Below are positions 35,102-64,000 of a stretch of DNA of 64,000 nucleotides, piece after piece (the stretch's first letter is position 1; every line of letters begins with the position of its first letter). The translations under genes and the position numbers were made by a program. Below the pieces are notes generated by a model. The model made no database searches. It was not told the origin of the DNA and was given only the letters and a program-made list of their open reading frames with translations. Source of the stretch: a virus; the UHGV virus genome UHGV-1366603. One strand, given 5' to 3'.

Positions 35102-36598
35102 ATGGCAGGCCCAACTAAGCAAGTTATCGGTGAAGTAATTCGTCCTCGTTTTAACGTTTATACCATCATGGACCACGCCTTAGGCAACTACGAAAGAGGC
35201 GAAGATGGTTTATACTACCTTAACGGTGGTTTTGCCCACATCATGGGTTTCGCGGGTCGTGGTAACACCTTCAAATCTACACTGTTGGATTTCTGTATCT
35301 TCCAAATCCTGCAACGCTATAAAGCAGAGTGGGGTTCGAAATACGATACCGAAGTGTCTGCTGCCCTCGATCGCTTAGAGACTGGTTATATTTCTGCCAT
35401 GCACGCCAACGGTATTGACGATGGAACTTCGGTACTGGAACTTATTCACGAAGGTCGTTATAACCTCGTTGGTTCTGACGTGATGCCAGGGGAACAGTAT
35501 TACAGTGACTATATTCGTGACGAAGTGGAAAAACGCTTCAAGCAGTATATGTCTGGTAAAACCCGTGTAACCCCGTTCCTTGACCCAGTTCGTCGTAAGC
35601 AAAAAGAAATCCTTGACCCGTGGCTGTATTCTATCGACTCCCTGTCTGAGTGGCACTCGTCTTCTCTGGAAGACAAGCACGCTAAAACGGATATCGGTGA
35701 TTCCGATCAGAACATTCTCAACGCCCACGACGCCTTACAGAAATCGAACATGATGAGCCGTTGGCCGTCTGCGTTTGCCCGTGGTGGTTTCTACATGGGC
35801 TTTGTTGCACAGATGGCGGACGACTCCGGTAAGGCGATGGCTGGCGGTCGTCAAGGGCAGAAAGCAAACGCGAAACTGCTGGACGATGCGAACGACGATC
35901 TCAAATTCGCAGGGATTCCTCGTCGTCAGTTAAGCTTCCTGACTAACTCGTTTATTGTTGCGACAAAATCAGGCGAGCTGAAAAAAGACCAGAGTTATAA
36001 TGCCCAGACCGGTGTTAACGAAGAACTTTACCCAACTGCACGTTCAAAAGCCATGAACGCGTCGGTTAACGACCTGAAAGTTATCACCTTTACGCAATAC
36101 CGTGCTAAAGGCGGTCACACGGGTGTGAAGTTCCAGATGATCTTCTCACAAGAGATGGGTCTACTGTACCACCTGAGCCTGTGGCATTACCTGAGTGACA
36201 CCCTGAAAAAATCCGAATTTGGGTTTACGTCCAGCGGTAGCGGTGGTTCCATTAAAGAACTCCAGATTCTTCCTGGTGTTAAATTCCAGCGTACGACGAT
36301 TCGTGACATGATTGACGATAACCCGAAACTGCGTCGGGCATTAGAAATCACGGCTGCGATTGCGTACATGCAAAACAACTACCATCGTTTAGAGGTTAAA
36401 TACCACCTCACGATGGAAGAAATCTACAAACTCATTGATGAAAAATGGGATTGGAATGAGATTCTGGAAAACACCGTAGAATACTGGATGTTTAAAGACC
36501 AGGAAACGAAAGGTGGTAAACGCACGTTAACTGCCCGTACGATTCTGGGTATGGCCGTGGACGGCCTGGAACCGAAGTTCCTCACCAAAAAGAAATAA
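35102..36598 (+). CDS. RecA/UvsX-like P-loop ATPase (putative recombinase)
   Basis: ..GGFAHIMGFAGRGNTFKSTLLD.. resembles the T4 UvsX P-loop ..GLTIFAGPSKHFKSNMSL..; candidate Walker B ..PWLYSIDSLSEW.. Confidence 0.45.
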   Translation: MAGPTKQVIGEVIRPRFNVYTIMDHALGNYERGEDGLYYLNGGFAHIMGFAGRGNTFKSTLLDFCIFQILQRYKAEWGSKYDTEVSAALDRLETGYISAMHANGIDDGTSVLELIHEGRYNLVGSDVMPGEQYYSDYIRDEVEKRFKQYMSGKTRVTPFLDPVRRKQKEILDPWLYSIDSLSEWHSSSLEDKHAKTDIGDSDQNILNAHDALQKSNMMSRWPSAFARGGFYMGFVAQMADDSGKAMAGGRQGQKANAKLLDDANDDLKFAGIPRRQLSFLTNSFIVATKSGELKKDQSYNAQTGVNEELYPTARSKAMNASVNDLKVITFTQYRAKGGHTGVKFQMIFSQEMGLLYHLSLWHYLSDTLKKSEFGFTSSGSGGSIKELQILPGVKFQRTTIRDMIDDNPKLRRALEITAAIAYMQNNYHRLEVKYHLTMEEIYKLIDEKWDWNEILENTVEYWMFKDQETKGGKRTLTARTILGMAVDGLEPKFLTKKK

Positions 36599-36643: not shown

Positions 36644-36943
36644 ATGCGTTATCAAACGGAGATTGTGGAACGCTTAAGCGAAGGTTTAGCCAGCGTCAGT
36701 CTGGAAACAGCAGCGGCATTTCGTGAGACTTTCGCTACTTTCTTTCCCGATCGTGAATCTTTTTGTTTAAAGGTCGGTGAATATTATTCCAAGTTACTCG
36801 AACACTACGGTTATCCGCCGGTGAAATTCGACGTACCTGAAAACACCGACGACATCAGTTATTGGATTGAAACCCTCGAAGCAGGGACACTTTCCAACTT
36901 GCGTAAGGCGGTAGAAAATGAAACTCGATCCAGCGCGGCGTAA
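36644..36943 (+). CDS. hypothetical protein (99 aa)
   Basis: SD TAAGGAG; preceded by hairpin GGGTAGGG-GATTA-CCCTACCC with no T-run. Confidence 0.5.
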   Translation: MRYQTEIVERLSEGLASVSLETAAAFRETFATFFPDRESFCLKVGEYYSKLLEHYGYPPVKFDVPENTDDISYWIETLEAGTLSNLRKAVENETRSSAA

Positions 36944-37586
36944 AAAAGCGGAAGCTTACGCCTTACAAATCTTAAGCCTGGTTGACCCCTCTGGGATTAA
37001 CGCGGAAGCAGCAAAGAAAGCCTTTGCTCGAATGACGGACGAACAGTTTAATCGTCTTCGTGAAGGGCTACCGATTTACAACCCGGTCGGTAGTAAAGTT
37101 AAAATCGACCACATGCGAAACGTTAAGCTTTGTCGTGTTTTAGGTTTGAACCTGGAACAACGGTTGTGGTTAACTGAGCCGAAAACGGGTGTTTTCCATC
37201 GTACTCGCTATCCCCATCTGGTGCTACGTTTACCTGCGCGTCGTCAAACACAGATGCAAGAAAAGAAAATGGCGGTAGCGAAGAACGACAAAGTTCGTGA
37301 TAAACTCTCCGGTCAGGTTGTGGGTCCTTCTAAGGCATCTGGCGTCTCTTTCCCAGAAGCGTACATCATGTACTCGGATGGTCACGACTGGACACTGAAA
37401 GAGTTTCTGTGGGCGCGTGGGGGTAACGAAGCGTTACAACGTGCGTTCTATCAATCGTTACGTCAAACCGGTAAGGGACGTATTGACCTACCGGGGGCAG
37501 AACGTACCAGTTCGAAAGCAACACGTACCTGGTCTGCGTATCTGAAAGCGATGCACATTGGTAACAACATAGGCCATCCGTCATGA
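36918..37586 (+). CDS. hypothetical protein (222 aa)
   Basis: ORF track; overlaps the upstream gene by 26 nt. Confidence 0.5.
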   Translation: MKLDPARRKKAEAYALQILSLVDPSGINAEAAKKAFARMTDEQFNRLREGLPIYNPVGSKVKIDHMRNVKLCRVLGLNLEQRLWLTEPKTGVFHRTRYPHLVLRLPARRQTQMQEKKMAVAKNDKVRDKLSGQVVGPSKASGVSFPEAYIMYSDGHDWTLKEFLWARGGNEALQRAFYQSLRQTGKGRIDLPGAERTSSKATRTWSAYLKAMHIGNNIGHPS

Positions 37587-47673: not shown

Positions 47674-47720
47674 ACCTACCTCCGAAAGGAGGTAGGTTAA
47701 CTTTCTTTTTTTCTTTTTTT
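47674..47720. terminator. bidirectional terminator (CCTACCTCC-GAAA-GGAGGTAGG, T-runs both sides)
   Basis: Between convergent genes 46835..47665 and 47719..48282. Confidence 0.6.
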
Positions 47721-48282
47721 AAGCGCCAGGAACAATCCCAGAAGAGATATACGTCAAACCGTCAAGTTCGGTAACTTTAATCAGTTTCGAAATATCCTTA
47801 CCGTCAGACGGCAGTTCAGTTAAGTACACTTCCAACTGACCTGTCCAAGCTAAAGATCTCCCGTTCATGATAATGATGGTTTTATCTTTGCTGTCTGGCG
47901 CAGCTGTTGGGTTCTCAACTTCGTCGTCCGTAATCTGTAAGTTATATTTCGTACGGAATAGTTCCAATACTTCAGAAACAGTAGCAGCGTTCACACCTGC
48001 GACAGAGACAACGAAATCACCTAACAGATGTTCCAAATCCAACCGACGATAAATAACGTCAATTTTACCAAACGTTTTCTGTTCAATAATTCCCTGGACG
48101 CTGAGTTGAGTATTTAATCGCGTAAATTGAGTTTCTGGTGTTTCTACTGCGGGGATATGTGCCGGTGTGCCGAAATTCAATTTATCGATTGTAATACCTT
48201 TCTCTACCAAACCTGGATTCTTTTTTACTAATAACTCATAAACCAGTTGTTTTCCTGATTTACCTAATAGCGTATTAGCCAT
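47719..48282 (-). CDS. hypothetical protein (187 aa), possibly virion-associated
   Basis: ORF track; first gene of the minus-strand block. Confidence 0.55.
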   Translation of the reverse strand: MANTLLGKSGKQLVYELLVKKNPGLVEKGITIDKLNFGTPAHIPAVETPETQFTRLNTQLSVQGIIEQKTFGKIDVIYRRLDLEHLLGDFVVSVAGVNAATVSEVLELFRTKYNLQITDDEVENPTAAPDSKDKTIIIMNGRSLAWTGQLEVYLTELPSDGKDISKLIKVTELDGLTYISSGIVPGA

Positions 48283-48298
48283 TATTTCCTCTCAAACA

Positions 48299-50500
48299 TT
48301 AACGTGCTTGCGGCAGGAAGATGTTCGCGATCTGGCGTGCTGGGATAACATCCAGTGCCGAGTTAATAAAACTACCCTGCGACCATGCAGATGCCCAGTT
48401 TTGTGCCCAGATGCTCGCATTAATCTTGGCACGCGCAATACCGTTAGTACGTTCGTACAACGTAGCACCACCTAAACACGCCATAAATTCACTGAATTTG
48501 TTATCATCATCCCACACACCTGTGTCAGTAACAATGGGCATGTACATAACGCGAGTCAAATCACGAATAGTAACAGAGATGTCGCAAGACAGTGGGACGG
48601 AATCACCTGGCCGCCAACCTAAACCACCCACACCGAACTGTAACGACATCGACGTTACCATTGCATTACGGAACGAGAAACGTCCTTGAGAGTAACACTC
48701 TAAGTAGAACGGGTGGGTAAAGGATTGTTTACCGGTTGCGAGCGGACACACTGCTGCAATCCAAAACGAAAGCGGAACTAACAAATCCTGGAAAATATCC
48801 AGGTCGTTACCCGACCAACAACGTAAAGGAATGGTTAAAGTAATGTCGTCTCCTGATGCGTCAGAACTATCCCAGACTTCTGGGAAGTCTATCACCGAGG
48901 AGTTGTACAACGACATTATCCCTGTCAAATGTAGGGTGTCTGCAACGCCTCGCATCGCTGACTTAATACCGGAAACTAAAGCATCGACCGCACTAAAACC
49001 GGTTTGTCCACCCGACAGGTTAACCTCCAACGAACGCGCTTTTGCTGTTGCGGAGTTTACCATCCCGGAAATCTCAGGTTCTTTCGTGGAGTTAGAGAAC
49101 GAACGCGAAACGGTGTCTTTACCGTCAATACGCCAAGTAACCCATTGTGAACCGTTCTTAATCTCTGACAGGACGTTATCGCCAACATCCGCAACCATGT
49201 CGGTAAACTCTTTAAAGAACGTTCCTACTTTGGATTCATCTTTACCTTTGTTCATCCAATCTTGGACTTGAACGATGTCTCCTTCGGTAAGGTCTTCTGG
49301 GTTCTTTTCATCTAACGTAGAGTTCAACTGCTTAGCTGCTGCCGCACGTTTCTCCATGGTCTGACGGGTTTTTTCCTGCTCAGATTGGATTTCTGCGGCT
49401 TGCTGTTGTAGTTCATTAGCGGTACCACCCACCACCAGGCTATTACTCATCTGTCCGATGAGCTGGTCTTCCTGACTGTCAATATCCTGTATCGGAGAAG
49501 CGTAACCACCCTTTTCACTTCTGGCAACTTTTTCCAAGTCGTATAGCGAGACTTCGAACTGTTCTGCTTTTAGACGTACGTTATCGCTGTAAGTAGCATT
49601 ATAGTAAAACGCACGTAAGCGACTAGCAAACAATTCTTCATCGTCACCGGATTCTACACGAATCGCATCGATAGTTTTAGCCTGATAGTTCGCCAAGGTC
49701 TGGTAACGGTTAATCATTCGGTAAATGTCAAACTCACCGTTCGCTTTCCAGACTTCGGGTAAGGATTTATACCACTCTTCACGATCTTTATGGTAACTAT
49801 TTTCTTTGCTTTCGGTATCGTAGCCCAACGCAAAAGTCCCTAACACCCCTGTAGGTACCAAACGACGGTAAATTAGCTGGGTATTCAGGATGTTTTGCAC
49901 CGCGCGCAAATACAGATGCATTGTGGGCTTAACGTAATAGTATCTTGACGTTTCTTTATTCAGCGCTGCCGAAAGAATCCTCGGTGTAATCAGAATCACC
50001 GCAAACGCTACAGTACCCACCGTCGCCCAAATAGCAGCCGCACCGATGTACGATGCCGCTGTTCGAATAATTCCTGGATAGTCACCTGTACGCGCAAGAT
50101 ACGCCAGGTTAGAATCGTACATGTTCGCAAAGAACGAAGCCATGCCCAGATACTTCGGTTTACCGAAACGGCAATGAACGTAAAATGAGTTCTGGCTGAT
50201 ACTTTCGTAGTAATACGTCCCTAAGCGATAAGACCCTGCGGCTGAGGAGTTATAAAGGGACTCGGTACCGCTCTTAGTCGCGTCGGGTTGTGCAAACGCG
50301 CCTGTTGAGGAAGGGTCTGCAAAAAGTGTAAACTGGGGCGGTGTGTTAATCGCTTTACTGCCACCAACTGTGGTGTCTTCAAACGACATCATACCACCGG
50401 AATAGCGGCGCAAGGCCAGGAAACGTTCATCTCGGCCATCGACTGCGCCATTAAATAGGTTTTTGACCCAGCTTGAGTCGTTAACTGTTCTAGCGTCCAC
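48299..50500 (-). CDS. large hypothetical virion-type protein (733 aa) with internal hydrophobic segment
   Basis: ORF track; hydrophobic stretch ..IGAAAIWATVGTVAFAVILI..; coiled-coil-like central region. Confidence 0.6.
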   Translation of the reverse strand: MDARTVNDSSWVKNLFNGAVDGRDERFLALRRYSGGMMSFEDTTVGGSKAINTPPQFTLFADPSSTGAFAQPDATKSGTESLYNSSAAGSYRLGTYYYESISQNSFYVHCRFGKPKYLGMASFFANMYDSNLAYLARTGDYPGIIRTAASYIGAAAIWATVGTVAFAVILITPRILSAALNKETSRYYYVKPTMHLYLRAVQNILNTQLIYRRLVPTGVLGTFALGYDTESKENSYHKDREEWYKSLPEVWKANGEFDIYRMINRYQTLANYQAKTIDAIRVESGDDEELFASRLRAFYYNATYSDNVRLKAEQFEVSLYDLEKVARSEKGGYASPIQDIDSQEDQLIGQMSNSLVVGGTANELQQQAAEIQSEQEKTRQTMEKRAAAAKQLNSTLDEKNPEDLTEGDIVQVQDWMNKGKDESKVGTFFKEFTDMVADVGDNVLSEIKNGSQWVTWRIDGKDTVSRSFSNSTKEPEISGMVNSATAKARSLEVNLSGGQTGFSAVDALVSGIKSAMRGVADTLHLTGIMSLYNSSVIDFPEVWDSSDASGDDITLTIPLRCWSGNDLDIFQDLLVPLSFWIAAVCPLATGKQSFTHPFYLECYSQGRFSFRNAMVTSMSLQFGVGGLGWRPGDSVPLSCDISVTIRDLTRVMYMPIVTDTGVWDDDNKFSEFMACLGGATLYERTNGIARAKINASIWAQNWASAWSQGSFINSALDVIPARQIANIFLPQAR

Positions 50501-50545
50501 TTTCTACCTCTTTAAGATGGGGGTGGTTTCCCACCCCCGTTTGTA

Positions 50546-53500
50546 TTAACCTGCACGTCTAACGTTAAGCTGTCGTGCTGGCTGTTCAACGGACATTTGT
50601 CGTGATGCTGAACCTGCTGGTGCCATAGGTTGAGCCGATGCGGTGTTTTGTACCGGTTGTGGACGTTGCTTAAGGATCGTGACAATCTCTTTGAGATAAC
50701 CCGCCGATTCTTTCGCAACAGCCAACTGCTGAACACTAATCGGATCGCCACTGCTAAGTGTAGGTCCGTTTTGTGCATCAGAAGTAACCGCAGGTGCCGG
50801 TTTACTCGTCGCTGCTGCGCGCTGCACAGCACCTTCTTTCACCTTCTCGACATCTTCTTCAGGCAACCCTTCATTTCTGGCTCCAGTTGCAACAGTCTCC
50901 CCAATCATAGAGGCGTCACCGCCTGCACTACTACCGCCAGGTGACGGTACTGCTGGACCACCACTGGTTGCAGCTTTGACGTTGTCCGCACCCATTGCAC
51001 CTTTCTCTGCTAACGCTTCATCACGACGCGCAGCATTGGACGCAGGCAAGTTATCCGTCGCTCCAGAAATTGATGGATCGTTAGCTGCCCCTGCTGCTAC
51101 CGCCGGAGAGGAGGCAACCGCAGGCGTTAGCCCTTTCACCATGTCTTTCGTTGAAGCTGGGTTAGCCGCAATTTCGTTTGTCGCCACAGCACCCATACGG
51201 CGGTTCAGTTCATTAATAACTTCACCAACAGTACGAATACGAACAATCTGCTTGCCGCGCATTTCGTAGAAGACCCCCTTATTACCACTAAGGATTTGAG
51301 GAGTAATGCCTTCTGCTTTGTCGGCTGGCATGTTCGGATTCTGCCGCCATGCATTAAGGAACTTCTTACCACCGCCTGGGCCCAAGAAGTGATACAGATA
51401 CGCAACAGCCGGAGGCGGTTCTACACCACCTAAGTCTTTCTGCGCCTGCATGATATTGTCACGAATAAACTGTACCCCGAGGATGGTATTTGCCCACGGG
51501 TCGTACTGGTTTACTTGCGGTATACCGTACCGACGAGAGTACCCTTTCATCATTCCAGACCACGTTTTGTCAATGAACTGGAACAACCCTGCTGCTGACG
51601 CACCTGGGTTCTTGACACCATATTTGAAATCAGATTCGGCTTTCGCCATCGCAATCGCGACCGCAGGCGGAACACCTAAGGTATTTGCGACATCCGCAAT
51701 CATCGCTTTAACGCCTTCTACGTTAGGTGACTTACCATCACCCAGTTTGCTGATTGGATACTTCTCAGCCAAGGTTTTGTAATCACCTTCTTTGACGTCC
51801 CCGAGTTTAATCCCGGATTGGCCCGTAGAGAACTTCGCGTAATTGCTAATACCCATCTCACCCACAACTTGAGACAGATCACCCGGTGTACCGTAAGACG
51901 ACCCACCGTTTGGCAAGTACCCATCCTTAGACGCTGTACCCCAATCAACAACACCTTTGAAACGATCTTTGGTGTCTTCGTCGGTTTGGTACATTCTCGT
52001 CGCACGATCGGCTTTCTGCCACTTCGCACGTTTACCTGCTGCGGGTGTAGACCGCAGGGTATCACGAACAGCCAGGTCAGGTTCTTTGGACAGTTCTTTC
52101 AGGTTGGCAAGTTCAGTAGCAACAGAACCTGCGTCGGTGTTTGCTTCTTCACCCAGTGGGTTGAACGGAATCTCCCACACGGACTGACGAATACCACCCT
52201 TCATGTTGTAAGCGCCACGAATCATCAACGCCAATTCGTACATGAACCCACCGGATACTTTCAGTTCGGTAGGGTCTGCTTGCGGAATGTAACGTTTCAG
52301 ACCAACGACGTAGGTCATATACGCCGGTAAGAAACGGTTGTAGAACCAGTTCTTACAACGCTCCTCTTTAGGACCACCTATCAGGTCAGGCGAGATAACC
52401 GCAATGGCTTCTTTCCAGTTGCCTTTATAGGTACAGTTCTTCACATCAATGTCTTTCAACACGTTCTTCTCTAACAGTGTGAAAAGATTACGCGTTGTTT
52501 GGTTGATAGTAACCGCACCGTAGGTTTTCCACCTGACCGATTCCAGGTCTTCCAAATCACTTTTCTTCGGTAAGGAATGCCAGTCAACTTGGATTTGAAC
52601 CTGTTCAGTTCCGTCTTCCCAACCTTCGACCTTCGCAACTTTCTCGTTACGTTCAGCATCTGCATTCGCCAGTACCTGACTGGTTTCAGCAACGGACGCA
52701 ACTTTGTGGCCTTCGACAGCATCACGCATACCTGAACGTTGTTTCCGTTTGTCGTCAGTACGCATGTTGATTGACCGCCACACACGTTCCTGTGCTTCGA
52801 CAACCTCTTCCCCTGACAAGAACTCTGCCGGAGTAAAGGTAACGAAATCCCACGCTTTAGAGAACCAACCCTGGTTAACTTTACGCGGGTCAGTCAATGA
52901 ACGGAATTCCGCAGAATCTTTACCCATCTTCATTTTGTTGTAGAGGGTAATCATATCCGCTTTCGACACTTTCTTCGGATCACCAACATCTGCCAAAGCG
53001 ATGTCGTTATCCATCGACTTCAGTGCTGAAATCCAGCGGAGGTAAATCGGTGCGAAACGTTGTAGCATAAACGCAGTAAATGCTAACATCTCACCACGTT
53101 CTTCCAAGTTTACACCGAACCCTTCTGCGAGTTTCTTCACGTCTTCGGAAGACAAGCCACGTAATTGTGCTTCACCCCCTTCGGTATACGAGACGTAAGG
53201 TTTCAAAGCGTCTTCTAAATAACGGGCTTTCATACCGTCTTCAGAAGACCACTGGTCGTAGTCACGGAAACCGTATTGTGCCAGACGCATATAGTCGAGG
53301 TACTGTGCTTTCACACGGGTAGCGCATTTATACGCCCAATAACCCAGACCAGCGGCAGTCGCACCGATCGCAATTGCAGGCCAACCCACCGCAGCCACTA
53401 CCGTAGATGCAGCCGAGGCTACCGCAGTCACTGCCGGTACCGCTAAACGTTGTACAGCAAACTTACCAACGTTCCACGCTGCTTTACCGAGGAACCCGGT

Positions 53501-56500
53501 AGGTTTAAAAATACCCCACTTCGCAACTTTGCCCAGTATCGAACCCACCGTACCTAAGATACTCACGATTGGTCCTACTAACGGTAAGTCTTTGAGGAAG
53601 TCCATCACCCCGCCTTTACGTCCTTTCTGCTCAGCGGTTTTCTTGGCTTTCTCTTCTTCCTTAGAACGTCTACGACGACGGAAGAATTGGAAGTAGTCAC
53701 GTTTTTCATCGTTGGCTGCCGGTTTGTTACGTTGTCCGAACTTACTGAACATCGTACGAATCAGGCCATCAGGTGCACCAGCACGTTCCGCAGAGTCACG
53801 CATGGTGTTAAACCAGGACATTTCCTGGAGGTTAACCATCCGGTTTAAACGTTCCAATAATGCTGAACCAACACTCTTCGCTTTCTGCTTACCTTTGTTG
53901 ATAACGCGTCCTGCGGTATCCGTTGCGGTTTCGAAATCCTCCTTCGCTGCGTTAAACACGCGTGTTGGAGAAACCTTACCACGAGCGTACAAGTGTTGAC
54001 GGTAAAACTCCGCAACGTCATCATCACGACCCGCTAAACGCGACTCCGCCCGATAACGTGTGGCAATATCGTAGCGTGGGTCACGGAAGCTATCTACTGT
54101 TTCACCAAAGCGCCCACGGAAACGGTCAAACCACCCTTTACCCGCAGCGCCCCAACGAGACAGTCTATCGCCAACGCCATGACGGAAACGTGAGAATCGG
54201 TCACGTTGTCTGCCTCGCCAATCCCGGAAATTCTGGAAGTAATCTTTAAATCCGTCGCGGAAATCCTTAACACGGTTAAGCATCCCTTTGATAGATTTCG
54301 AGCCAACGTTTTTCTCCAGTTGCTCCGTCCAGGATTCATCTTCAGGCTCACCGTCTAAACGACGGTTAAGGAGTTTATAGATACGAATCAGGATATGGTT
54401 GGTCTTACGGCCATTCGACCAAGAGAACATGCTGAAGCCACCGCCAGAACCACCTTCCTTACGATTCTGCCACCACCGGGTAAGCGGGTTGTCGGTCGCT
54501 AACTCTTTGAATTTCTCAAAGCCACGTTTTGCATTGTTCCACAAACGAGCAGGCATTCCGGTTACGCGAGAAATCATGCTTTGTAAACGTGTTTTCTCAC
54601 TCCCCTCAGGAATCTCATTAAGCCACTCACGCGCTTTCTCGAAGATAGACGCTGCTCTTGGCGAGATTAGACCAATCAGTTTCTTCGGTAAGTTAACAGC
54701 TTTGTTTACTGCTGTACCTGCTTTACCGGAGATATACTGGAACAGGGCCTGGAGTTTACCGCCTTTATAGAAGCGCAGTTTACCCGCAGCCGCTAAGTCT
54801 GCCGCTGCGAGAATCAAGTTCCCGGCTTCGTCAACAATATCACGACCCAGCTTAATGTCGTCTAACGAGCGGAGTTGTACCAGCTTGTTGGTTTTAGGGT
54901 CAGCCTGATAATACTCACCTGCCTCTAAACGGCTTCCTTGTAAAACAACATTGCCTTTCTCGTCGTAGATGTCCCGAACACCAAGAACACCTTTCCCGAA
55001 GGCGACCGCCGAATTCCAGCCTGTGGACAACGTACCAGTAACTAAACCTTTCAGTCGTTCAAAAACACCTGGACCGTCAGATGGCCCACCGGAGAATTTC
55101 CCACGAATAAAACTGCCCAGTGACTGTAAACGCCCTTTCCCTCTCAGGAACATGTTCTTCGCAAAACGACCCGCGCCCGTACCGGTGTCCCAAAGTACGC
55201 CCGCCCAACGACGGAACAGCCCACTTTCACCAAGCACGATGCGTTTACGCTTGCGTTTGTTACCGGTGCTACCTGCATCTTCAGAAGCGTCACCCTCGTC
55301 ACCGTCACGACCACCACCTAAGCTGGCCAGCAGGATACCTTCCTCATCCATGTTCTTAACATGTTTCAGAATTTCCTGCACGGTGTTGGATTCGGACTTA
55401 TTACGAATAGCATCAACGATTCTATCAAACTGTTGCTCTAACCCTGCGGTGGTATCAGGACGTTCGCTTAGCAGTTCAACAAAGTTGGTAGATTTTTCAC
55501 CGTAGAGGACAGCAGCAAGTTGTCGTGCCGACAGTCCACGGCCACCGCGACCGCCTTTACCTTTAACGGTGTCAATTGTCGACTCGTCACCGGTTACGGA
55601 GGCGTCTACCCCTAAACGACGTAAATAGTCACCTAGCGCAGAACCGTTTTTCAGTTTGCGCTGGATTTCTTGTTCACGCGTTAACGAACGACCGGAACGG
55701 GTTTTCCCCATGGCCAGGTCGTTATACAGCGTATACGGATCGTTAATGTCTTTATCTACATCAAACCGATCGTTCTTCGCATCGTACTTAAAGATACCTG
55801 CATCACGTAACGCATTCTCACCGTAGATAATTGAAGCTTCGTCTACCGTGTTTTGACGTGCACGAATTGTTGACTGAATGGCCGAAATCTTACCAGCGAT
55901 TTCGTTGCTAAGTTCGTGATGACCGCCTGTCAGTTCTGAAGACCGTGCTTCTAAGACCGCCTGAATCGCTTCTACCGCGTTTGCATTCATGTAACGATAC
56001 ATGTGCATCGGGTCTTTCAGCAGACTGCCTACGTCGAACGCCTTACCTTCAGACGCACGTGATTCGATATAGTCCGCCAGCGCTTGGCGAGTTTTCGAAT
56101 CCAGAGTTTTGTCTTTGTCGATAAAGTCAACGGTTTCGTTAATGTACTGCTGTAAACGCTTCCGCTGTTCATCGTTCGCAACCGCTTTACGGACACGGTT
56201 GCCGACAACTTTACGGTCAATCATCCCACGCGTGGTTAAATCGTACACCTGGTCGTGGTGTTCGCCGTACCCGCGACGAATAGATTTGTTAATCTCCGTC
56301 AGCAAAGTCGGGATGACTTCCGTGATGCTAAGATACGCTTTACGGTCGAACTTCGCAGCGGCGGATAACGCTTCTGCTGAACGTTCTTCTAAAGCTAATC
56401 CCTCACGACGCAGCGGTGTCACTAACCCCATCTCGTGCATTAAACGGAAGACGGTGGCCAGTGGGCCGTCTATCTCACCAGCAATCGCCGAGTTAGAGAT

Positions 56501-57682
56501 AGAAGATAAGTTACCGAACCCGTAGCGTGCCAACTGAAGCCGTTTCATGACTTCTGGGTTCTTTTCTAACTCACTGCGTGTCCAGTTCTGTAAACGTTCT
56601 ACCTGAGGTTGTAAGAACCGTTTTGCTAACCAACTACCGGCAAACCCTGCGACTTTACCTCGGGAATTCGTACGACGACGTTCTGGCGACAGTGTAGAAC
56701 TGTCTTCCATGCCGAAGTCGTCTTCCTGACTCATTGACAGAACTTGTTCTAATATCCCGCGTCCGTCGCTGAAGATATTCGAAATCTTTTTCTTCGCGTT
56801 CTCACGAATCTGATCAATAAAGTTATCCGCGTAACGCAAGGGGTTCATCCATTCGGCAGCTTTACGTTTTACGTTAGCCCAACGAACTTCAGAGAATTCC
56901 TCTTTTGCGTAGTCCGGCAACGCGGTGTTTTTAACAATCGCTTCAAGTGCCGGGGTGTTACGGCTAAACTCATCCTGTTTAAGTTTAGCAATATCTTGCA
57001 ACGCGAATAACGTACGGTATTGCAGCTCTAGCTGTTTACGCTGAACGTTAAGCATTACCCCGCGACTTAAACTGGTCGTCAGGTTAACGTCTTTCGCAAT
57101 ACCGATAACCGTCTGGAACAGCGCATCGGACTTCATGTCCTTGATGGTGTCACGAAGACGGTCTTCTACCATTCCTTCCTGAACTTCACGTTGTTGTTCA
57201 GGTGTTTGTGGCGTACCTGCAAAAACAGAGTCTAACTCACGATCCATTAACGCTTGTTTAGGATCGTAATTCCCGTAATCGTACTGGTCGCTTTTCGCCC
57301 ACTTGTCGATCTTACGGGTTACACTGTCAGGCAAATACCGTTTTAGGGTTGGGCCTAACTGACGAGCTTGTGCCTTCACCACACGGGAGGTCTTTTCAAT
57401 CTCGTCTTTCGTATGGGCCAGAATGTCTTGACCTGCGGCTTTGACGTTCTTATAACCTTCATAAGCGTCAGTCGCCGGTTTTGGCATTCCTTTTAAAATG
57501 ACCTGATCACGTTTATTTTCGGGCCAGATAGTCGACAACGCCGACTTACGGGCAGCACGAAATGTGTCCATGACCGGGTTACGCGATTGGTCTTGTTGAC
57601 GAGGGGGCTCATCAAAATCGTCCCAGTCGTCCATGTTATCAAGATCGATTTCATCGAAATCGTCTTTACCTTTTTTAGCCAT
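50546..57682 (-). CDS. giant virion-type protein (2378 aa) with C-terminal lytic transglycosylase (SLT) domain
   Basis: SLT motifs ..AMAKAESDFKYGVKNPGASAAGLFQFIDKTW.. and ..AYLYHFLGPGG.. (coding ~51290..51720); acidic N-terminus; Gly/Arg repeats; Ala/Pro-rich C-terminal tail. Confidence 0.8.
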   Translation of the reverse strand: MAKKGKDDFDEIDLDNMDDWDDFDEPPRQQDQSRNPVMDTFRAARKSALSTIWPENKRDQVILKGMPKPATDAYEGYKNVKAAGQDILAHTKDEIEKTSRVVKAQARQLGPTLKRYLPDSVTRKIDKWAKSDQYDYGNYDPKQALMDRELDSVFAGTPQTPEQQREVQEGMVEDRLRDTIKDMKSDALFQTVIGIAKDVNLTTSLSRGVMLNVQRKQLELQYRTLFALQDIAKLKQDEFSRNTPALEAIVKNTALPDYAKEEFSEVRWANVKRKAAEWMNPLRYADNFIDQIRENAKKKISNIFSDGRGILEQVLSMSQEDDFGMEDSSTLSPERRRTNSRGKVAGFAGSWLAKRFLQPQVERLQNWTRSELEKNPEVMKRLQLARYGFGNLSSISNSAIAGEIDGPLATVFRLMHEMGLVTPLRREGLALEERSAEALSAAAKFDRKAYLSITEVIPTLLTEINKSIRRGYGEHHDQVYDLTTRGMIDRKVVGNRVRKAVANDEQRKRLQQYINETVDFIDKDKTLDSKTRQALADYIESRASEGKAFDVGSLLKDPMHMYRYMNANAVEAIQAVLEARSSELTGGHHELSNEIAGKISAIQSTIRARQNTVDEASIIYGENALRDAGIFKYDAKNDRFDVDKDINDPYTLYNDLAMGKTRSGRSLTREQEIQRKLKNGSALGDYLRRLGVDASVTGDESTIDTVKGKGGRGGRGLSARQLAAVLYGEKSTNFVELLSERPDTTAGLEQQFDRIVDAIRNKSESNTVQEILKHVKNMDEEGILLASLGGGRDGDEGDASEDAGSTGNKRKRKRIVLGESGLFRRWAGVLWDTGTGAGRFAKNMFLRGKGRLQSLGSFIRGKFSGGPSDGPGVFERLKGLVTGTLSTGWNSAVAFGKGVLGVRDIYDEKGNVVLQGSRLEAGEYYQADPKTNKLVQLRSLDDIKLGRDIVDEAGNLILAAADLAAAGKLRFYKGGKLQALFQYISGKAGTAVNKAVNLPKKLIGLISPRAASIFEKAREWLNEIPEGSEKTRLQSMISRVTGMPARLWNNAKRGFEKFKELATDNPLTRWWQNRKEGGSGGGFSMFSWSNGRKTNHILIRIYKLLNRRLDGEPEDESWTEQLEKNVGSKSIKGMLNRVKDFRDGFKDYFQNFRDWRGRQRDRFSRFRHGVGDRLSRWGAAGKGWFDRFRGRFGETVDSFRDPRYDIATRYRAESRLAGRDDDVAEFYRQHLYARGKVSPTRVFNAAKEDFETATDTAGRVINKGKQKAKSVGSALLERLNRMVNLQEMSWFNTMRDSAERAGAPDGLIRTMFSKFGQRNKPAANDEKRDYFQFFRRRRRSKEEEKAKKTAEQKGRKGGVMDFLKDLPLVGPIVSILGTVGSILGKVAKWGIFKPTGFLGKAAWNVGKFAVQRLAVPAVTAVASAASTVVAAVGWPAIAIGATAAGLGYWAYKCATRVKAQYLDYMRLAQYGFRDYDQWSSEDGMKARYLEDALKPYVSYTEGGEAQLRGLSSEDVKKLAEGFGVNLEERGEMLAFTAFMLQRFAPIYLRWISALKSMDNDIALADVGDPKKVSKADMITLYNKMKMGKDSAEFRSLTDPRKVNQGWFSKAWDFVTFTPAEFLSGEEVVEAQERVWRSINMRTDDKRKQRSGMRDAVEGHKVASVAETSQVLANADAERNEKVAKVEGWEDGTEQVQIQVDWHSLPKKSDLEDLESVRWKTYGAVTINQTTRNLFTLLEKNVLKDIDVKNCTYKGNWKEAIAVISPDLIGGPKEERCKNWFYNRFLPAYMTYVVGLKRYIPQADPTELKVSGGFMYELALMIRGAYNMKGGIRQSVWEIPFNPLGEEANTDAGSVATELANLKELSKEPDLAVRDTLRSTPAAGKRAKWQKADRATRMYQTDEDTKDRFKGVVDWGTASKDGYLPNGGSSYGTPGDLSQVVGEMGISNYAKFSTGQSGIKLGDVKEGDYKTLAEKYPISKLGDGKSPNVEGVKAMIADVANTLGVPPAVAIAMAKAESDFKYGVKNPGASAAGLFQFIDKTWSGMMKGYSRRYGIPQVNQYDPWANTILGVQFIRDNIMQAQKDLGGVEPPPAVAYLYHFLGPGGGKKFLNAWRQNPNMPADKAEGITPQILSGNKGVFYEMRGKQIVRIRTVGEVINELNRRMGAVATNEIAANPASTKDMVKGLTPAVASSPAVAAGAANDPSISGATDNLPASNAARRDEALAEKGAMGADNVKAATSGGPAVPSPGGSSAGGDASMIGETVATGARNEGLPEEDVEKVKEGAVQRAAATSKPAPAVTSDAQNGPTLSSGDPISVQQLAVAKESAGYLKEIVTILKQRPQPVQNTASAQPMAPAGSASRQMSVEQPARQLNVRRAG

Positions 57683-57711
57683 AACGTTTAATCCGTATCA
57701 GGAGATTTAGC

Positions 57712-59337
57712 GTGAATAAACTTAATTGGGTTGACTTTTATCTGCTCAATGTAAACAAGTCTCTTGTGTCGCGATTACGACCCGTCACGACCACAGATAC
57801 TTTTCAAGGGTTGACAAAAAACTTTCACCCTGAAGGGTTATACTCCACGGAGATATTCGGTCTTACGGGAAGTGAAGCCCGAGACTCAACGTTTTCTTAC
57901 ATTGATATTAAATTAGATATCATTTCGCCGACGGTGTGTTTGGCGTTATTCCAACTAAAACAACTCTACGAAGAAATTTGTTCTGGAAAACGCTACGCAA
58001 CCTGGAGCGAAAAAGAAAAAGATTTTGAACCGGCTTTGCCTGGCGACGCTGGCGCAGATACCGGTTTTAACTTTTTCCTTAGTCACTACAACGACTTAAA
58101 ACCCGGACGTAACGAATCGTTACAACGTGACGAAACGGTGGATTTCTTCGAGAAGTTCCGTCCCGTGAGTCTTAGCCGCTATGTTCTCGTATTACCCGCA
58201 GGTTTACGTGATTTGGTGGTTAGACAAGACGGTAGGGAACAGGAAGAGGAAATCGGCGGGTTATATCGTCGTTTGATTTCTTTGGCCAGGGCGATTCCTG
58301 ACCGTGCCACACGGGTTGAATTAACGAACCCTGTGCGATGGAAACTCCAACAAACCTTTAACGAAATCTGGATGTACTTCTTTAACATCCAGGACGGTAA
58401 AGGGGGTTTCCAACGTCGTAAAGTGACGTCGCGTAAACTGATGAACGGGACACGTAACGTATTGTCCTCATTCTCCACAGGCTCTAAATGCATGGGGCGT
58501 GAGGATGCGATTCGACCAACTGACACCAAAATTGGTTTGTATCAGGGTCTGAAGGCGTTACTGCCCGTTGCGCAATACCAGATACGTGAACGTTACCTCG
58601 GTAACATTCGTGCTGGCGATGGCAACCTTTACGGCGTAAACACCAAAACGCTTAAACGCGAGTTCTTGGAAGTTGGGGGTCGAGTTTACGACACCTTTAC
58701 CACGGACGACGGTATCGAAACATTAATTAACCGAATGGAAGCTCGCGAGCTTCGTCATCAGCCGTTAATGATTAACGATACCCATTACGTCGCGTTAGTC
58801 TACCAAGACAACAAACATTTTAAGGTGTTCTACGATATCGATGAACTGCCTAAAACGTTTGACCGTAAAAACGTCCACGGAATGACCCTGGTAGAACTAC
58901 TCTACTTATCGGGTTACGATCTGTGGAACAACTATTTCGGTTTCGTTACACGTTATCCCGTCACCGGTCGAGGCTCGACGTACTCATCGACCATAAGATT
59001 GGAGACCACCACGTCATCTTTATACTTAAAAGAACTGGAAGATGACTGGGAGACTGAAAAGCCTCGCGGGGCAATCAGTTATCCTGACCGGTCGGTTCCA
59101 ACCTTTGTTGAGTCGATGGCACCGCACCCGTCACGACTGGGTGGCTTAGGGGGTGACTACGACGGTGACACCGGTTCACTTAACGCGCCTATGTCGGAAG
59201 AAGCGCTCGAGGAAAACCGTAACTGGGTACACTCGAAGAACTACTGGTTCGACTCTGACGGGAATTTCAAAATCAACCCCGTCAACAACGTGATTAAACG
59301 TGCGACGCAAGCGTTATTAAAGAATCCAAAAGGCTAA
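57712..59337 (+). CDS. multisubunit RNA polymerase beta-prime-like subunit, N-terminal fragment (split RNAP)
   Basis: GTG start with AGGAG 7 nt upstream. Motifs ..GLYSTEIFG.., ..IDIKLDIISPTV.., ..VLVLPAGLRDLV..GGLYRRLISL.., ..GGDYDGDTGSLNAP.. align with bacterial RpoC landmarks (ARIFGP, HIELASP, VLPVLPPDLRPLV / LYRRVIN, NADFDGD). No Zn-finger cysteines. Confidence 0.65.
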   Translation: MNKLNWVDFYLLNVNKSLVSRLRPVTTTDTFQGLTKNFHPEGLYSTEIFGLTGSEARDSTFSYIDIKLDIISPTVCLALFQLKQLYEEICSGKRYATWSEKEKDFEPALPGDAGADTGFNFFLSHYNDLKPGRNESLQRDETVDFFEKFRPVSLSRYVLVLPAGLRDLVVRQDGREQEEEIGGLYRRLISLARAIPDRATRVELTNPVRWKLQQTFNEIWMYFFNIQDGKGGFQRRKVTSRKLMNGTRNVLSSFSTGSKCMGREDAIRPTDTKIGLYQGLKALLPVAQYQIRERYLGNIRAGDGNLYGVNTKTLKREFLEVGGRVYDTFTTDDGIETLINRMEARELRHQPLMINDTHYVALVYQDNKHFKVFYDIDELPKTFDRKNVHGMTLVELLYLSGYDLWNNYFGFVTRYPVTGRGSTYSSTIRLETTTSSLYLKELEDDWETEKPRGAISYPDRSVPTFVESMAPHPSRLGGLGGDYDGDTGSLNAPMSEEALEENRNWVHSKNYWFDSDGNFKINPVNNVIKRATQALLKNPKG

Positions 59338-59340
59338 TCA

Positions 59341-62300
59341 ATGCTGCTCATTAAACAGTTTAACCAACGCTTCTCTGTGCGTAAAACAGACGAGTTTGGT
59401 AATCCGAGGATTATCCCGCTCGAGAAGCTCCAGATACCACGAGGCTCCATACTGCACGTCGTGGATCTCGATCAGGTGGTCTTAGCGCCACCTGCTACGC
59501 TGGAAATCATCCAGCCGTTGGAAAAACCTGCACAAATTCGCCACCACTTTAAACTTCCCGAAGAAGGGATTAGTGGGCATCCACGTAACAAACCTGTGCA
59601 GGGGCAAGAACGTGCTATCTTTGCGTACCATCGCGCTAACCGTCCAATTCGTCGTCTGACTTCAGATGACCTGGTGCGTAAAGACTTAAAAGTTCTCCTT
59701 ATTGAGAACTACACACCGATGTTATCGCACTACTATTATCCAGACACTCAGTTAGCCTGGTACGATAGACTGCGTAATATCCAGCTGTTAATGACCAACC
59801 AGTTCAAATACGACACGCAAGAATACATGCGTCAGAACTATTTCGTGATTGAGCTGGGATCAACGTTACCGTCTTTCCAGAAGTTCCAAACGACGTATAA
59901 CGATCGCGTTAAAAGCAAGATTGAAAAGTTCCAGGACTTTAACCTGCTGTGGCTGTTGGAACTTTTCGCTTGGGCGTACGGTAAACAGTCCGATTCTCTG
60001 TTTGCGGGAATGGACTTAACGCAACTGTCTCGAATGAACTTCATCTTCACCCATAACGGCGGCTTTACGTCGATGAACATGGGTGTCGTGGAGAAGATGC
60101 GTAAATCGTCCGGTGGTCGTTTAAGTGACGACCAGATGGCCAGGATGTTCTATCGTACGTTAGTGCGTGTAATGACACAAGCACCGTCTAATGCGTACGA
60201 AGCTGAATTCCTGACACCGGAAGGTGATGAACGTATCTTTGTTAAAGACATCGAAGAAGAGACGGTTGACGTCGCTGACGATGGAGACGTTGTTAACGAC
60301 GCTGTGGTTGAATCGGATAACGCATTCGATGAAAAAGAAGACCTCGTTATTGAGGAACCGAAAGAAGACGTTAAGCCGACGACTATCGTTATCGAAAAAA
60401 CGATTGCTCACGATGACATTATCAAACAGGAAGCGCAGAAACTGGCTGAGGCGGGCCGCTTAAGCTCTAAAGCGTATCAGTTCCTGTCTGATTCGACTAA
60501 ACGTTTCGTTCAGTTACCGAACCCGTATAACCCGAAAGAGACTTACGGTGAAGCATTAACCATTCACGAAAAAGACATTGCCGTGAAAGCGGAACCGAAG
60601 AAAGTCCAGCGACTGGTTACGGATGAAGGTTGGGCAGAAAACGTCACCGACCAAATGGTGAAACAATACAACCAGACCATGATGAGTAAAGACGTACTGG
60701 CAGCTGTCGCCAGCTCGCAGCGTCTTGGTTTGGCTATTCACAACCACACGATCGAGAAAGAGATTTCCGTTACGGGAACTATCGAACACCACACCCTGCG
60801 TGTTCAACCGATTGGTGGTGAACCGACGACAGTGCGTTTCTCTATCCCTGGTCTAACCGAAGACGGTACCTGGGTAGCAAACGGTGTTGAATACACCATG
60901 CGTCGTCAGCGTGTAGACGTGCCGATTCGTAAGGTCGCCCCAGACACCGTAGCGTTAACGACCGCTTACGGTAAAAACTTCGTACGTCGCAGTGACAAAG
61001 TCGCAAACGACTACGGTCGCTGGTTAACGAACGCGATTATCACGCGTGCCGTAGACCCGACCAACACGGAGATCACTGACGCACGTCTCGCGAACGTTTT
61101 CGATCCTACTGAGAAACTTCCTCGTCAGTATACGGAGATTGCACGTCGTATCGCCAGCTTTAATGCAGGCGGGTATATGTGGAACTTCGATTATAAAGAA
61201 GCGGTTAACTTCTTTAATGACGAACAGCTTACTGACGCAAACAACGTTGAGATGTTGCCGGTTGCGAAACGTCCGCGTAGTGAAGTTATTGTGGTGATGG
61301 ATACCAAGTCCATGCTCTATACCGTTAAGGGTAAAGAGTGCACACCGCTGGGCACCATCTCTGAAGTGCTTGGTTTCAGTAACCAGAAAGCGCCAAGAGA
61401 GATGACCGAACTTTCACTGATGGGCAAATCGCTCTCACTGGGCTTCATCTTCTCGTTCTATTTAGGTCTGCAAGGGATGCTTAAGCATTTCGGCATTCAG
61501 TACGAAATCGTCCCTGTTGGCCAACGTGTAGATAAGAGCACGTACGATTCTATTATTCGTCTCCAGGACAGTAAGTTCCTGGTAACGTGTGATAACGATC
61601 AGCAACGAATGATTCTACACGGTCTGGATAAGTACCTGAAACACCTGGTAGCTTATACCGAGTCCGAAGTCGACCGCGAAGACATTTACCTGAACTTAAT
61701 ACGTGATGCAGATGGGCTAACTCCACGCTACATCAACGAGCTGAAACAAATGCGGGCCGCGTTTGTTGATGACATGCACGCACGTATCCTCAGGAAAATG
61801 GGTGAACCGGAAACCTTTATCGGGCTGTTGGAACGTTCTAACGAACTGTTACAAACCGACCACTCTTTGCCGGAGATTAACGGTGATGAGATGATGTTCT
61901 TAGGGAACCAACGTATTTCCTACCACATCTACACCGCGTTGGTCAGGGCGATGCGTAACTACAACAACGCACCGAACAGTAACCGTAAGTTCGAACTTAC
62001 TCAGGACATGATTTGGGGTGCCATTAACTCCGACCCGTCTGTTCTGTTAGCGCCGGGTGCTAACCCTATCCAGTCGATTAAAGAGAAAGACGTTATCACC
62101 ATGGGGGGCACGGGTGGCCGTAACCGTAAAACAATGGTTTATCACACGCGTGAGTTCCAACCGAGTGACCTGGGTATTGTATCCGGTAACACGGTGGATA
62201 ACGGTGACGTAGGTATTACTGCTTTCGCCACTAACAACCCACGTTTTGATACCGTTGACGGCACCACCTATAAACGGGATGAAAAGAAACTGAAGCCGAG

Positions 62301-63507
62301 TGACACTCTGTCATTTATTGACGGTCTCGTACCGGATACCCTGATGGATGACGCTAAACGTCAAAACTTCGTTGGGATTCAGTTAGGTTCTGCCACCAGT
62401 TGCAACGGCGCTACCACTACCCCTTATCGTACCGAACAGGAGAAATTTGTCGCTCACCGTACGTCGGTGAAACACGCACGCGTTATTGATAAAGCAGGTA
62501 AAATCACCGGTCTGTCTAAAGACCATATCGAAATTACGTACGAAGATGGAAGTAAAGAAGCCTTTCCTCTAGGGCGCTGGTTCGGCCCCCACGAAGGTAC
62601 CTTCTATCCGCACACCCTGGTGACTCGCTGGAAAGCCGGTGACAAACTCCCGGCCGGGGCAGTCATCACCTATAACGAGCAACACTTTGAACCCGATATC
62701 TACGACCCTACTCAGGTTTCCTGGAAAAACGGGGTGCTGGCTACCGTCGCTCTAATCGAAGCTGAAGAAGTAATCGAAGACTCCAATGCTATTTCTGAAC
62801 GGTTCGCGAAGAAAATGGTTGGGCAGGTTACTAAGCTGAAAGAAGTGGTGATTAACAGCAACCAGATGCTCCTGGAAATCGTTAACGAAGGGGAACACGT
62901 TGACGTCGACACAATCCTATGCACATTTACTGACGACCTTACGGGGGATATGAGTACCTTTAGTAAGGAAGCAGCACAAACGTTGCAAAGTTTAAGTTCG
63001 TACGCGCCTCGTGCTGGGGTTCGTGGTATCGTGGATAAAATCGAAGTCGTGTATCACGGTGAAACCGAAGACATGACGCCTTCACTGGCAGAACTGGTAC
63101 GTAAATACGATCGCATTCGTCGTAAAGCAGCATTGGCTGTTAATCGTGGCGATCCGGTATCAGGGAGTGTTAATGGGGATTACCGTGTAGAGGGTGTACC
63201 GTTAGCCTTTAACTCGCTTTGTGTTCGATTCTTTATTACGCACGAAGTTGAAATGGCCGCAGCGGATAAGATGGTTATTGCTAACCAGCTGAAAACCACT
63301 GTACAAGAAGTGATGTACGGGGAAAACAAAACAGAAGATGGCGACGACATTGACATTTTGTTCGGTCGTGATTCTGTCGACGCACGTATCGTAGGTTCTA
63401 TCCAACGAATCGGTACCGCAAATGCTGTGGGTGAACAAGCAGGGATTCTTATCGGTCGTATTCTCGACGGCGAGTCCGTGCCTGAGTTACCAGCGACACT
63501 TAAATAA
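59341..63507 (+). CDS. multisubunit RNA polymerase beta-like subunit, N-terminal fragment (putative)
   Basis: ..NPIQSIKEKDVITMGGTGGRNRK..FQPSDLGIVSGNTVDNGDVGIT..NNPRFDTVDGTTYKR.. parallels E. coli RpoB ..[60 protein letters not shown]..; the RpoB C-terminal catalytic region is absent. Confidence 0.55.
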   Translation: MLLIKQFNQRFSVRKTDEFGNPRIIPLEKLQIPRGSILHVVDLDQVVLAPPATLEIIQPLEKPAQIRHHFKLPEEGISGHPRNKPVQGQERAIFAYHRANRPIRRLTSDDLVRKDLKVLLIENYTPMLSHYYYPDTQLAWYDRLRNIQLLMTNQFKYDTQEYMRQNYFVIELGSTLPSFQKFQTTYNDRVKSKIEKFQDFNLLWLLELFAWAYGKQSDSLFAGMDLTQLSRMNFIFTHNGGFTSMNMGVVEKMRKSSGGRLSDDQMARMFYRTLVRVMTQAPSNAYEAEFLTPEGDERIFVKDIEEETVDVADDGDVVNDAVVESDNAFDEKEDLVIEEPKEDVKPTTIVIEKTIAHDDIIKQEAQKLAEAGRLSSKAYQFLSDSTKRFVQLPNPYNPKETYGEALTIHEKDIAVKAEPKKVQRLVTDEGWAENVTDQMVKQYNQTMMSKDVLAAVASSQRLGLAIHNHTIEKEISVTGTIEHHTLRVQPIGGEPTTVRFSIPGLTEDGTWVANGVEYTMRRQRVDVPIRKVAPDTVALTTAYGKNFVRRSDKVANDYGRWLTNAIITRAVDPTNTEITDARLANVFDPTEKLPRQYTEIARRIASFNAGGYMWNFDYKEAVNFFNDEQLTDANNVEMLPVAKRPRSEVIVVMDTKSMLYTVKGKECTPLGTISEVLGFSNQKAPREMTELSLMGKSLSLGFIFSFYLGLQGMLKHFGIQYEIVPVGQRVDKSTYDSIIRLQDSKFLVTCDNDQQRMILHGLDKYLKHLVAYTESEVDREDIYLNLIRDADGLTPRYINELKQMRAAFVDDMHARILRKMGEPETFIGLLERSNELLQTDHSLPEINGDEMMFLGNQRISYHIYTALVRAMRNYNNAPNSNRKFELTQDMIWGAINSDPSVLLAPGANPIQSIKEKDVITMGGTGGRNRKTMVYHTREFQPSDLGIVSGNTVDNGDVGITAFATNNPRFDTVDGTTYKRDEKKLKPSDTLSFIDGLVPDTLMDDAKRQNFVGIQLGSATSCNGATTTPYRTEQEKFVAHRTSVKHARVIDKAGKITGLSKDHIEITYEDGSKEAFPLGRWFGPHEGTFYPHTLVTRWKAGDKLPAGAVITYNEQHFEPDIYDPTQVSWKNGVLATVALIEAEEVIEDSNAISERFAKKMVGQVTKLKEVVINSNQMLLEIVNEGEHVDVDTILCTFTDDLTGDMSTFSKEAAQTLQSLSSYAPRAGVRGIVDKIEVVYHGETEDMTPSLAELVRKYDRIRRKAALAVNRGDPVSGSVNGDYRVEGVPLAFNSLCVRFFITHEVEMAAADKMVIANQLKTTVQEVMYGENKTEDGDDIDILFGRDSVDARIVGSIQRIGTANAVGEQAGILIGRILDGESVPELPATLK

Positions 63508-63554
63508 TCTCAAGGGGTGGGTCGCTCCCACCCTGATAAACTCCGGAGTAGAGA

Positions 63555-63848
63555 ATGTCTATTTTAGATAAAATCAAACAGCGACACGGTATTCCGACTG
63601 GGAAAAATATTACCCAGCAAAGCGTGGAGGGCTATAGCCCTATCCAACGTACTAACTACGTGTCTTTGGGCAACACGGTTGAACTGACAACGGAAATCGT
63701 GCACGGCTTGATTCGTGGCAATTCTGGAATGTCTGACCGTATCGGCGATCAGAAACTGCTGAAACGCGATATCGCTGACCTGGTGGGAGCTCGTTTGTAC
63801 ACGAAGCTTCAGGATGCCGTCACCACCAATAATGAGGTTAAACAATGA
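63555..63848 (+). CDS. hypothetical protein (97 aa)
   Basis: ORF track. Confidence 0.5.
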   Translation: MSILDKIKQRHGIPTGKNITQQSVEGYSPIQRTNYVSLGNTVELTTEIVHGLIRGNSGMSDRIGDQKLLKRDIADLVGARLYTKLQDAVTTNNEVKQ

Positions 63849-64000
63849 TCAGTTTATACTCGCTGAACGCAGTTACCAACGCCATGAAGCTGTGCAAACA
63901 GCACAACATTCAACTCGGCACCGACGTTGACTCTCCGGTTGACCTGTTAAACCGTGCGGTAGATCCATCTCGTGTTTTTGACACCACCATTACTGACGAA
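63845..64000 (+). CDS. hypothetical protein, 5' part (runs off window end)
   Basis: ATG overlapping the upstream stop (ATGA); open to the window end. Confidence 0.35.
   Translation, partial: MISLYSLNAVTNAMKLCKQHNIQLGTDVDSPVDLLNRAVDPSRVFDTTITDE

Follow-up and report, generated by a model that had tools for sequence, protein, structure and literature searches.

A split RNA polymerase gene pair, very probably of the virion type, beside the head and tail genes of an SPN3US-group jumbo phage

We examined two adjacent genes in a 64,000-nucleotide (nt) stretch of the virus genome UHGV-1366603 (hereafter the window, ~64 kb of a ~223-kb genome), which encode proteins of 541 and 1388 amino acids (aa) at exactly the coordinates given in a first-pass annotation made from the sequence alone (Table 1). 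The pair very probably encodes the N-terminal parts of the β′ and β subunits (β′-N and β-N) of a split, virion-packaged RNA polymerase (vRNAP) of the phiKZ/SPN3US type, injected for early transcription. What is established is the homology to β′ and β, the conservation of the catalytic residues, the division into split subunits, the orthology and the virion-gene context. The first-pass annotation had proposed split, highly diverged RNA polymerase (RNAP) subunits of the phiKZ-like virion kind next to virion genes, and this proposal was borne out by a β′ profile match, a β structural match and 77–87% identity to SPN3US subunits. Such an enzyme frees phiKZ-like giant phages from host transcription. 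Earlier work has already described and tested this system, including where its subunits are split, where it sits in the virion and the direct orthologues, and nothing new on RNAP biology follows from the pair; the practical value is a corrected vRNAP subunit map for the present phage, with three of the five genes in the window.

The 541-aa product and the N-terminal part of β′

The 541-aa open reading frame (ORF) was matched end to end by phrog_2986, annotated as "RNA polymerase beta subunit" (E = 1.6e-235). Single-sequence phmmer searches of the PDB with this ORF gave marginal matches, all of them to β′ and centred on the Asp motif; such searches were insufficient for both ORFs, and family profiles were needed. 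A profile built from 30 homologues, with identity down to 38%, matched the β′ subunit of the AR9 non-virion RNAP (nvRNAP) best (7s01_d, E = 9.4e-13), the plastid and cyanobacterial RpoC1/γ chains best among cellular proteins (E = 6e-10 to 4e-7), and dozens of bacterial β′ chains at ~1e-6.

The ORF is colinear with Escherichia coli RpoC 52–507. Residues 39–52 pair with RpoC 52–65 (IFG at 48–50 with 62–64 of E. coli), residues 134–253, which contain VLPAGLRD, with RpoC 212–356, and residues 469–528 with RpoC 447–507, NADFDGD included. GGDYDGD at residues 480–486 pairs with NADFDGD of E. coli β′ (458–464), the Mg-binding motif DYDGD itself (482–486) being aligned to 460–464, and the stop lies 55 residues past GGDYDGD. 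These colinear anchors bear out the annotated course of the protein, which was said to follow the β′ N-terminal landmarks and to end soon after the Asp triad. The triad was conserved in 29 of 29 homologues reaching the motif, one further homologue being truncated before it. The motif does read DYDGD rather than DFDGD, as had been pointed out, but this is nothing peculiar, because the family varies among F, Y and H at that position (D-[F/Y/H]-D-G-D); DYDGD is a subgroup variant and not an oddity, and the AR9 β′ chain likewise reads DYDGD.

Three Cys occur in the 541-aa ORF, none of them in a conserved column, and family members carry 0–4. The stretch from IFG to SP comprises ~22 residues, compared with ~44 in E. 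coli, where Cys70/72/85/88 sit. Because no Cys column is conserved and the zinc-ribbon stretch is about half as long as that of E. coli, the protein is zinc-finger-less, in line with the annotation, and this is a trait of the whole 541-aa family. Two features of canonical RpoC are thus missing from the ORF, namely the N-terminal Cys4 zinc element and the single ~1400-aa polypeptide, the present one stopping at 541 aa.

The 1388-aa product and the extent of β

The colinear RpoB anchors, the fold matches and the invariant motif residues described below indicated that the 1388-aa ORF is β and not β′, and that it keeps the β catalytic barrel and lacks approximately the last 200 β residues. It was matched over its full length by phrog_3148 (E = 0), whereas a second RNAP family, phrog_14872, matched from residue 498 onward only. 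Laccase matches returned by single-sequence phmmer against the PDB were spurious. When a family profile of 21 sequences was searched against the PDB, it matched Thermus thermophilus β (E = 6.7e-4, residues 981–1104 to 530–655) and other bacterial β chains too.

Along E. coli RpoB, β-N residues 504–524 correspond to 126–146 (IPLMTxxGTFxxNG), residues 905–1068 to 516–737 (the fork-loop/Rif region with GGxGG...R, and the DDxxR segment), and the last 271 aa to 792–1146 (hhalign E = 0.023; hmmsearch of the β-N C-terminal part against RpoB, i-E = 0.0097 for 1049–1132). The second of these blocks, together with the T. thermophilus match, substantiates the β-like segment that had been annotated about 920 aa into the protein. 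Within the last block, IEDS of β-N aligned to FEDS of E. coli (812–815) and ADKMVIANQLKT to GDKMAGRHGNKG (1063–1074), and an invariant β-N Arg is read from the alignment as corresponding to R1106 of E. coli. The family shows no variation at residues E1146, D1147, S1148, K1310, K1318 and R1349, and E. coli GRHGNKG is replaced by IANQLKT. A profile of the last 271 aa matched no RNAP chain in the PDB; the mapping of the β C-terminal part and of the separate β-C subunit was based on one-to-one hhalign and hmmsearch comparisons with E. coli RpoB, motif colinearity, the fold match and orthology. The annotation had described the ORF as lacking the β C-terminal catalytic region; this was correct for approximately the last 200 residues, which are absent, but not for the barrel motifs, which are kept, the protein ending at about E. 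coli position 1146.

An AlphaFold2 (AF2) model of β-N residues 481–1388 reached a predicted local distance difference test (pLDDT) score of 62, with the lobe and flap domains confident and the core poor. Foldseek comparison of this model with the PDB gave a best match at E = 6.9e-14 (prob 1.00) and 196 matches at E ≤ 0.001; the top matches listed were all RNAP β-subunit chains, both bacterial β and the AR9 nvRNAP core chain 7s00_C. In the structural alignments, the β body was ~12–16% identical to cellular β. Two checks suggested with the first-pass annotation, profile and predicted-structure comparison with RpoB/RpoC, recovered RNAP chains: β′ chains with the 541-aa profile, and β chains with both the profile and the model of the 1388-aa ORF.

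Orthologues, remaining subunits and competing readings

The 541-aa β′-N is 87% identical to SPN3US gp240 (541 and 537 aa, respectively) and β-N is 77% identical to gp241 (1388 and 1401 aa), and the order tail gene, β′-N, β-N, two small genes, β′-C and prohead protease is common to the two phages. Thomas et al. (2016) assigned SPN3US gp240 to β′-N, gp241 to β-N, gp218 to β-C, gp42 to β′-M and gp244 to β′-C, identified all five subunits in virion heads with mass spectrometry, and found that heads of a gp241 amber mutant were without any of them (PMC5105663). In gp241, a ~400-residue N-terminal region has no homology to cellular β (PMC5105663), and β-N of the present phage has a nonhomologous extension of the same size. 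The two phages differ in that the contigs matching the present one measure ~223 kb compared with 240 kb for SPN3US, and that its β-N linker is ~13 residues shorter; the proteomic and genetic data are those of SPN3US.

The first-pass annotation had placed the partner halves outside the window and had assumed one for each subunit. This appears to be right for β′, except that β′ has two partners in this lineage, β′-M and β′-C, rather than a single one; β-C, on the other hand, lies inside. The lineage has five vRNAP genes, of which three are in the window, and those for β′-M and β′-C would lie outside it. The 222-aa ORF assigned to β-C matched phrog_3233, "RNA polymerase beta subunit" (E = 2.1e-93), and is 85% identical to a syntenic 222-aa SPN3US protein annotated as an RNAP β subunit, in agreement with gp218, the 222-aa β-C (PMC5105663 Table 5). 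Its residues 34–182 align with E. coli β 1159–1309 (hhalign E = 0.0033, a single comparison), and the alignment resumes where the 1388-aa ORF ends on E. coli β. β-C has homologues in 302 phage records from across the phiKZ-like phages, often annotated there as virion proteins, and the homologue found by tblastn among these phages is ~36% identical. In the syntenic region of phiEaH2, a small "RNA polymerase beta subunit" gene is situated ~22 kb upstream of the pair. The RefSeq record of phiEaH2 annotates the β-C counterpart at 105 aa only, apparently owing to a late start call. Past the window end, the ~223-kb contigs that are 97% identical to it encode products of 97, 486 and 242 aa ahead of a Peptidase_S80 prohead protease. 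A candidate β′-C among them, the 242-aa product, is 87% identical to the 240-aa SPN3US virion protein gp244.

Taken with the orthologues, the parts would fit together as follows. The 541-aa β′-N would supply β′ from its N-terminal part through the double-psi barrel, in which the DYDGD aspartates hold the catalytic Mg; β-N would supply its ~285-aa N-terminal domain, the acidic linker, and then nearly all of β (lobes, fork loop, flap, second barrel and the ED and Lys motifs); and the 222-aa β-C would contribute the last ~200 β residues. By analogy with the SPN3US and phiKZ orthologues, the subunits would be made mid to late in infection, assemble without α or ω, be packed into the prohead, and be ejected with the DNA, whereupon early genes would be transcribed independently of host RNAP.

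In phiKZ, an enzyme of the same kind, with β and β′ homologues in several polypeptides, consists of gp178, gp149, gp180 and gp80, has no α, ω or σ, and is packaged in the head and injected (PMC8287921, PMC10612078); it enters with the DNA at ~10 copies per virion and transcribes early genes (PMC10612078, PMC13282480, PMC7598289). The present phage differs from phiKZ in a much lower identity than that to SPN3US and in gene arrangement; gp241 of SPN3US itself is 29% identical to its phiKZ counterpart (PMC5105663 Table 6). In some phiKZ-like relatives, vRNAP genes contain introns or a homing nuclease (PMC5105663 Fig. 7 legend). The vRNAP comes in five pieces and shares its β′ split site with cyanobacteria, a coincidence whose origin was left open in a review (PMC7598289). 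Like the present β′, the cyanobacterial and plastid γ/RpoC1 and β′/RpoC2 are divided past the Asp-triad barrel, but those enzymes are cellular and have α, ω, σ, a zinc finger and an unsplit β; we saw no evidence of direct descent from that split β′. No solved jumbo-phage vRNAP structure turned up in our literature search.

Several points weigh against the assignment to a virion enzyme. Confidence in the AF2 model of the β body is moderate only, and the matches of the β C-terminal motifs and of β-C are individually weak (one-on-one E values of 0.003–0.02). The family profile of β-C matched no RNAP chain in the PDB, and β′-M, searched for with the 431-aa SPN3US protein, had no significant match within the 64-kb window. 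Packaging, ejection and early-gene transcription by the subunits of the present phage are what we infer from orthologues at 77–87% identity. A Pfam search gave no match above threshold for the 541-aa, 1388-aa or β-C ORFs; since the cellular RNA polymerase models do not reach proteins this diverged, this silence is not evidence against homology.

It is highly improbable that the pair belongs instead to the second, non-virion enzyme, which would be made after infection, act within the phage nucleus and stay unpackaged. The best solved-structure match of the 541-aa family was indeed to AR9 7s01_d, and 7s00_C was among the fold matches; in the nvRNAPs of known structure, those of AR9 (7S00/7S01) and phiKZ, β′-N is also split past the catalytic barrel, and AR9 shares with the present proteins DYDGD, the absence, in the alignment, of a zinc ribbon after IFG, and the β-N fold. 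However, the AR9 matches may merely reflect that no vRNAP chain was matched in either search, and the nvRNAPs are a paralogous, unpackaged enzyme with remote sequence similarity only. The SPN3US RNAP β-subunit genes for proteins of 745 and 701 aa, which we take to be its nvRNAP genes, had no significant match within the 64-kb window. The pair is flanked by tail and head genes, near the prohead protease. Furthermore, the nvRNAP core is made of four pieces, to which a promoter-specificity subunit is added, and β is split there at another site (PMC7598289), whereas a β split close to the C terminus and a long extension at the N terminus are typical of vRNAPs (PMC5105663, PMC7598289). The 77–87% orthology and the synteny are with SPN3US gp240, gp241 and gp218, which are virion borne by mass spectrometry (PMC5105663), and on this orthology an nvRNAP identity of the pair was rejected.

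Nor does it appear at all likely that we are dealing with RNAP relics that have lost catalysis and been kept for a structural or ejection role in the head. Their extreme divergence (no Pfam match, ~12–16% identity to cellular β), the missing zinc finger and the change of GRHGNKG to IANQLKT would be in keeping with such relics. Nevertheless, homologues down to 38–48% identity keep the three catalytic Asp, the ED pair of β, the two barrel Lys and the Arg with little or no variation, indicating selection on catalysis. Moreover, gp241 is essential in SPN3US (PMC5105663), and the early transcription of phiKZ, which is independent of host RNAP, is credited to the injected vRNAP (PMC13282480).

Finally, there is next to no chance that the 1388-aa ORF continues β′ with its bridge helix and trigger loop after a cyanobacteria-like split, even if it starts 3 nt past the β′-N stop as in a freshly split gene, because all top structural matches listed are β chains, the profile matches β only, the β motifs come in order (IPLMTxxGTFxxNG, fork-loop GGxGG...R, DDxxR, EDS, DKM...K), and in SPN3US gp241 is β-N while the β′ remainder is gp42 plus gp244 (PMC5105663); a β′-C identity was thus rejected on fold and motif evidence.

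The β-N extension, relatives and surroundings of the pair

Within the assigned gene pair, the N-terminal domain of β-N stands out as a conserved module. The whole extension (residues 1–~480) had no PDB match, and the ~285-aa domain at the N terminus, for which a confident structure was predicted and which heads 430 representative proteins, has no relative among solved structures. It might be a previously undescribed fold doing the job of other subunits or factors in cellular RNAPs, an idea that we put forward tentatively and regard as rather doubtful. The domain may serve as an assembly platform in place of α and ω, may carry the signal for head targeting and ejection that has been proposed for SPN3US gp241, or may act as a promoter-recognition module for early transcription without σ. 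In the acidic linker that follows, pLDDT fell below 50 over residues 287–327 and 341–352, and compared with SPN3US gp241 this stretch is variable and rich in indels.

Table 1. Positions of the gene pair, its parts and other features discussed in the text (window coordinates, unless a contig is named)
Feature	Position	Strand	Details
Probable vRNAP β′-N gene	57712..59337	+	GTG start, 541 aa; from the ORF listing
Probable vRNAP β-N gene	59341..63507	+	ATG start, 1388 aa; from the ORF listing
Lineage-specific N-terminal domain of β-N	59341..60195	+	aa 1–285; predicted well-folded α/β domain
Acidic, predicted-disordered linker of β-N	60199..60396	+	aa 287–352
β-homologous body of β-N	60778..63504	+	aa ~480–1388, corresponding to E. 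coli β ~120–1146; Rif/fork-loop, flap and double-psi barrel motifs
Probable vRNAP β-C gene	36918–37586	+	222 aa; ~20 kb upstream of the pair, in the window
Candidate β′-C gene	L006 17612–18340		On a 97%-identical contig; ~1.3 kb beyond the window end, ~1.8 kb past the β-N stop
Shine-Dalgarno-like AGGAG	57700..57704	+	7 nt 5′ of the β′-N GTG; read from the sequence
Tail protein gene	50546–57682	-	2378 aa; SLT transglycosylase domain; PHROG "tail fiber" family match
UvsX-like recombinase gene	35102–36598	+	phrog_97, E = 1e-54; just 5′ of the β-C gene
GC-rich hairpin	63514..63534	+	8-bp stem, 7 nt 3′ of the β-N stop

The window comes from a jumbo phage belonging to the SPN3US/phiEaH2 group. The DNA of the pair is ~76% identical to that of the Erwinia phages Stratton, phiEaH2 and Asesino and of Salmonella phage SPAsTU. 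A megablast search of the phage-isolate collection found no record covering 80% of a 24-kb stretch, and thus no close relative. Positions 47709–64000, however, are 97% identical to the ~223-kb contigs, which come from several metagenome and isolate assemblies (loci L006–L008), and the exact 541-aa protein occurs in 289 blocks of the collection searched, the NCBI Salmonella assemblies labeling it only "hypothetical protein." The phage is widespread in public assemblies, although none of the isolate genomes searched matches it closely. In the Salmonella phages SPFM12, SPFM1 and SPFM6, proteins P0151–P0153 match β-N as short forward blocks, mostly of ~20–60 aa, in reversed order. This pattern suggests records whose sequence was scrambled, for example by listing 60-nt lines from last to first, rather than biology; a comparable fragmentary match was seen for β-C in SPFM7.

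The β′-N stop and the β-N start are spaced by 3 nt, and the divergent gap between the 2378-aa tail gene and β′-N is 29 nt in all. The GC content of the gene-pair region, 47–49%, is ordinary for the window. A scan of positions 57000–64000 for σ70 promoters and intrinsic terminators gave matches at chance level, as expected if host RNAP does not read these genes. Directly downstream of β-N, the hairpin GGGGTGGG-TCGCT-CCCACCCT has no U tract and was absent from the terminator-scan output. Its RNA fold of -17 kcal/mol (z = -1.7 versus shuffles) is not significant alone. This hairpin is possibly a transcript-end or stability element, and it could mark where the polymerase of the phage itself finishes a transcript.

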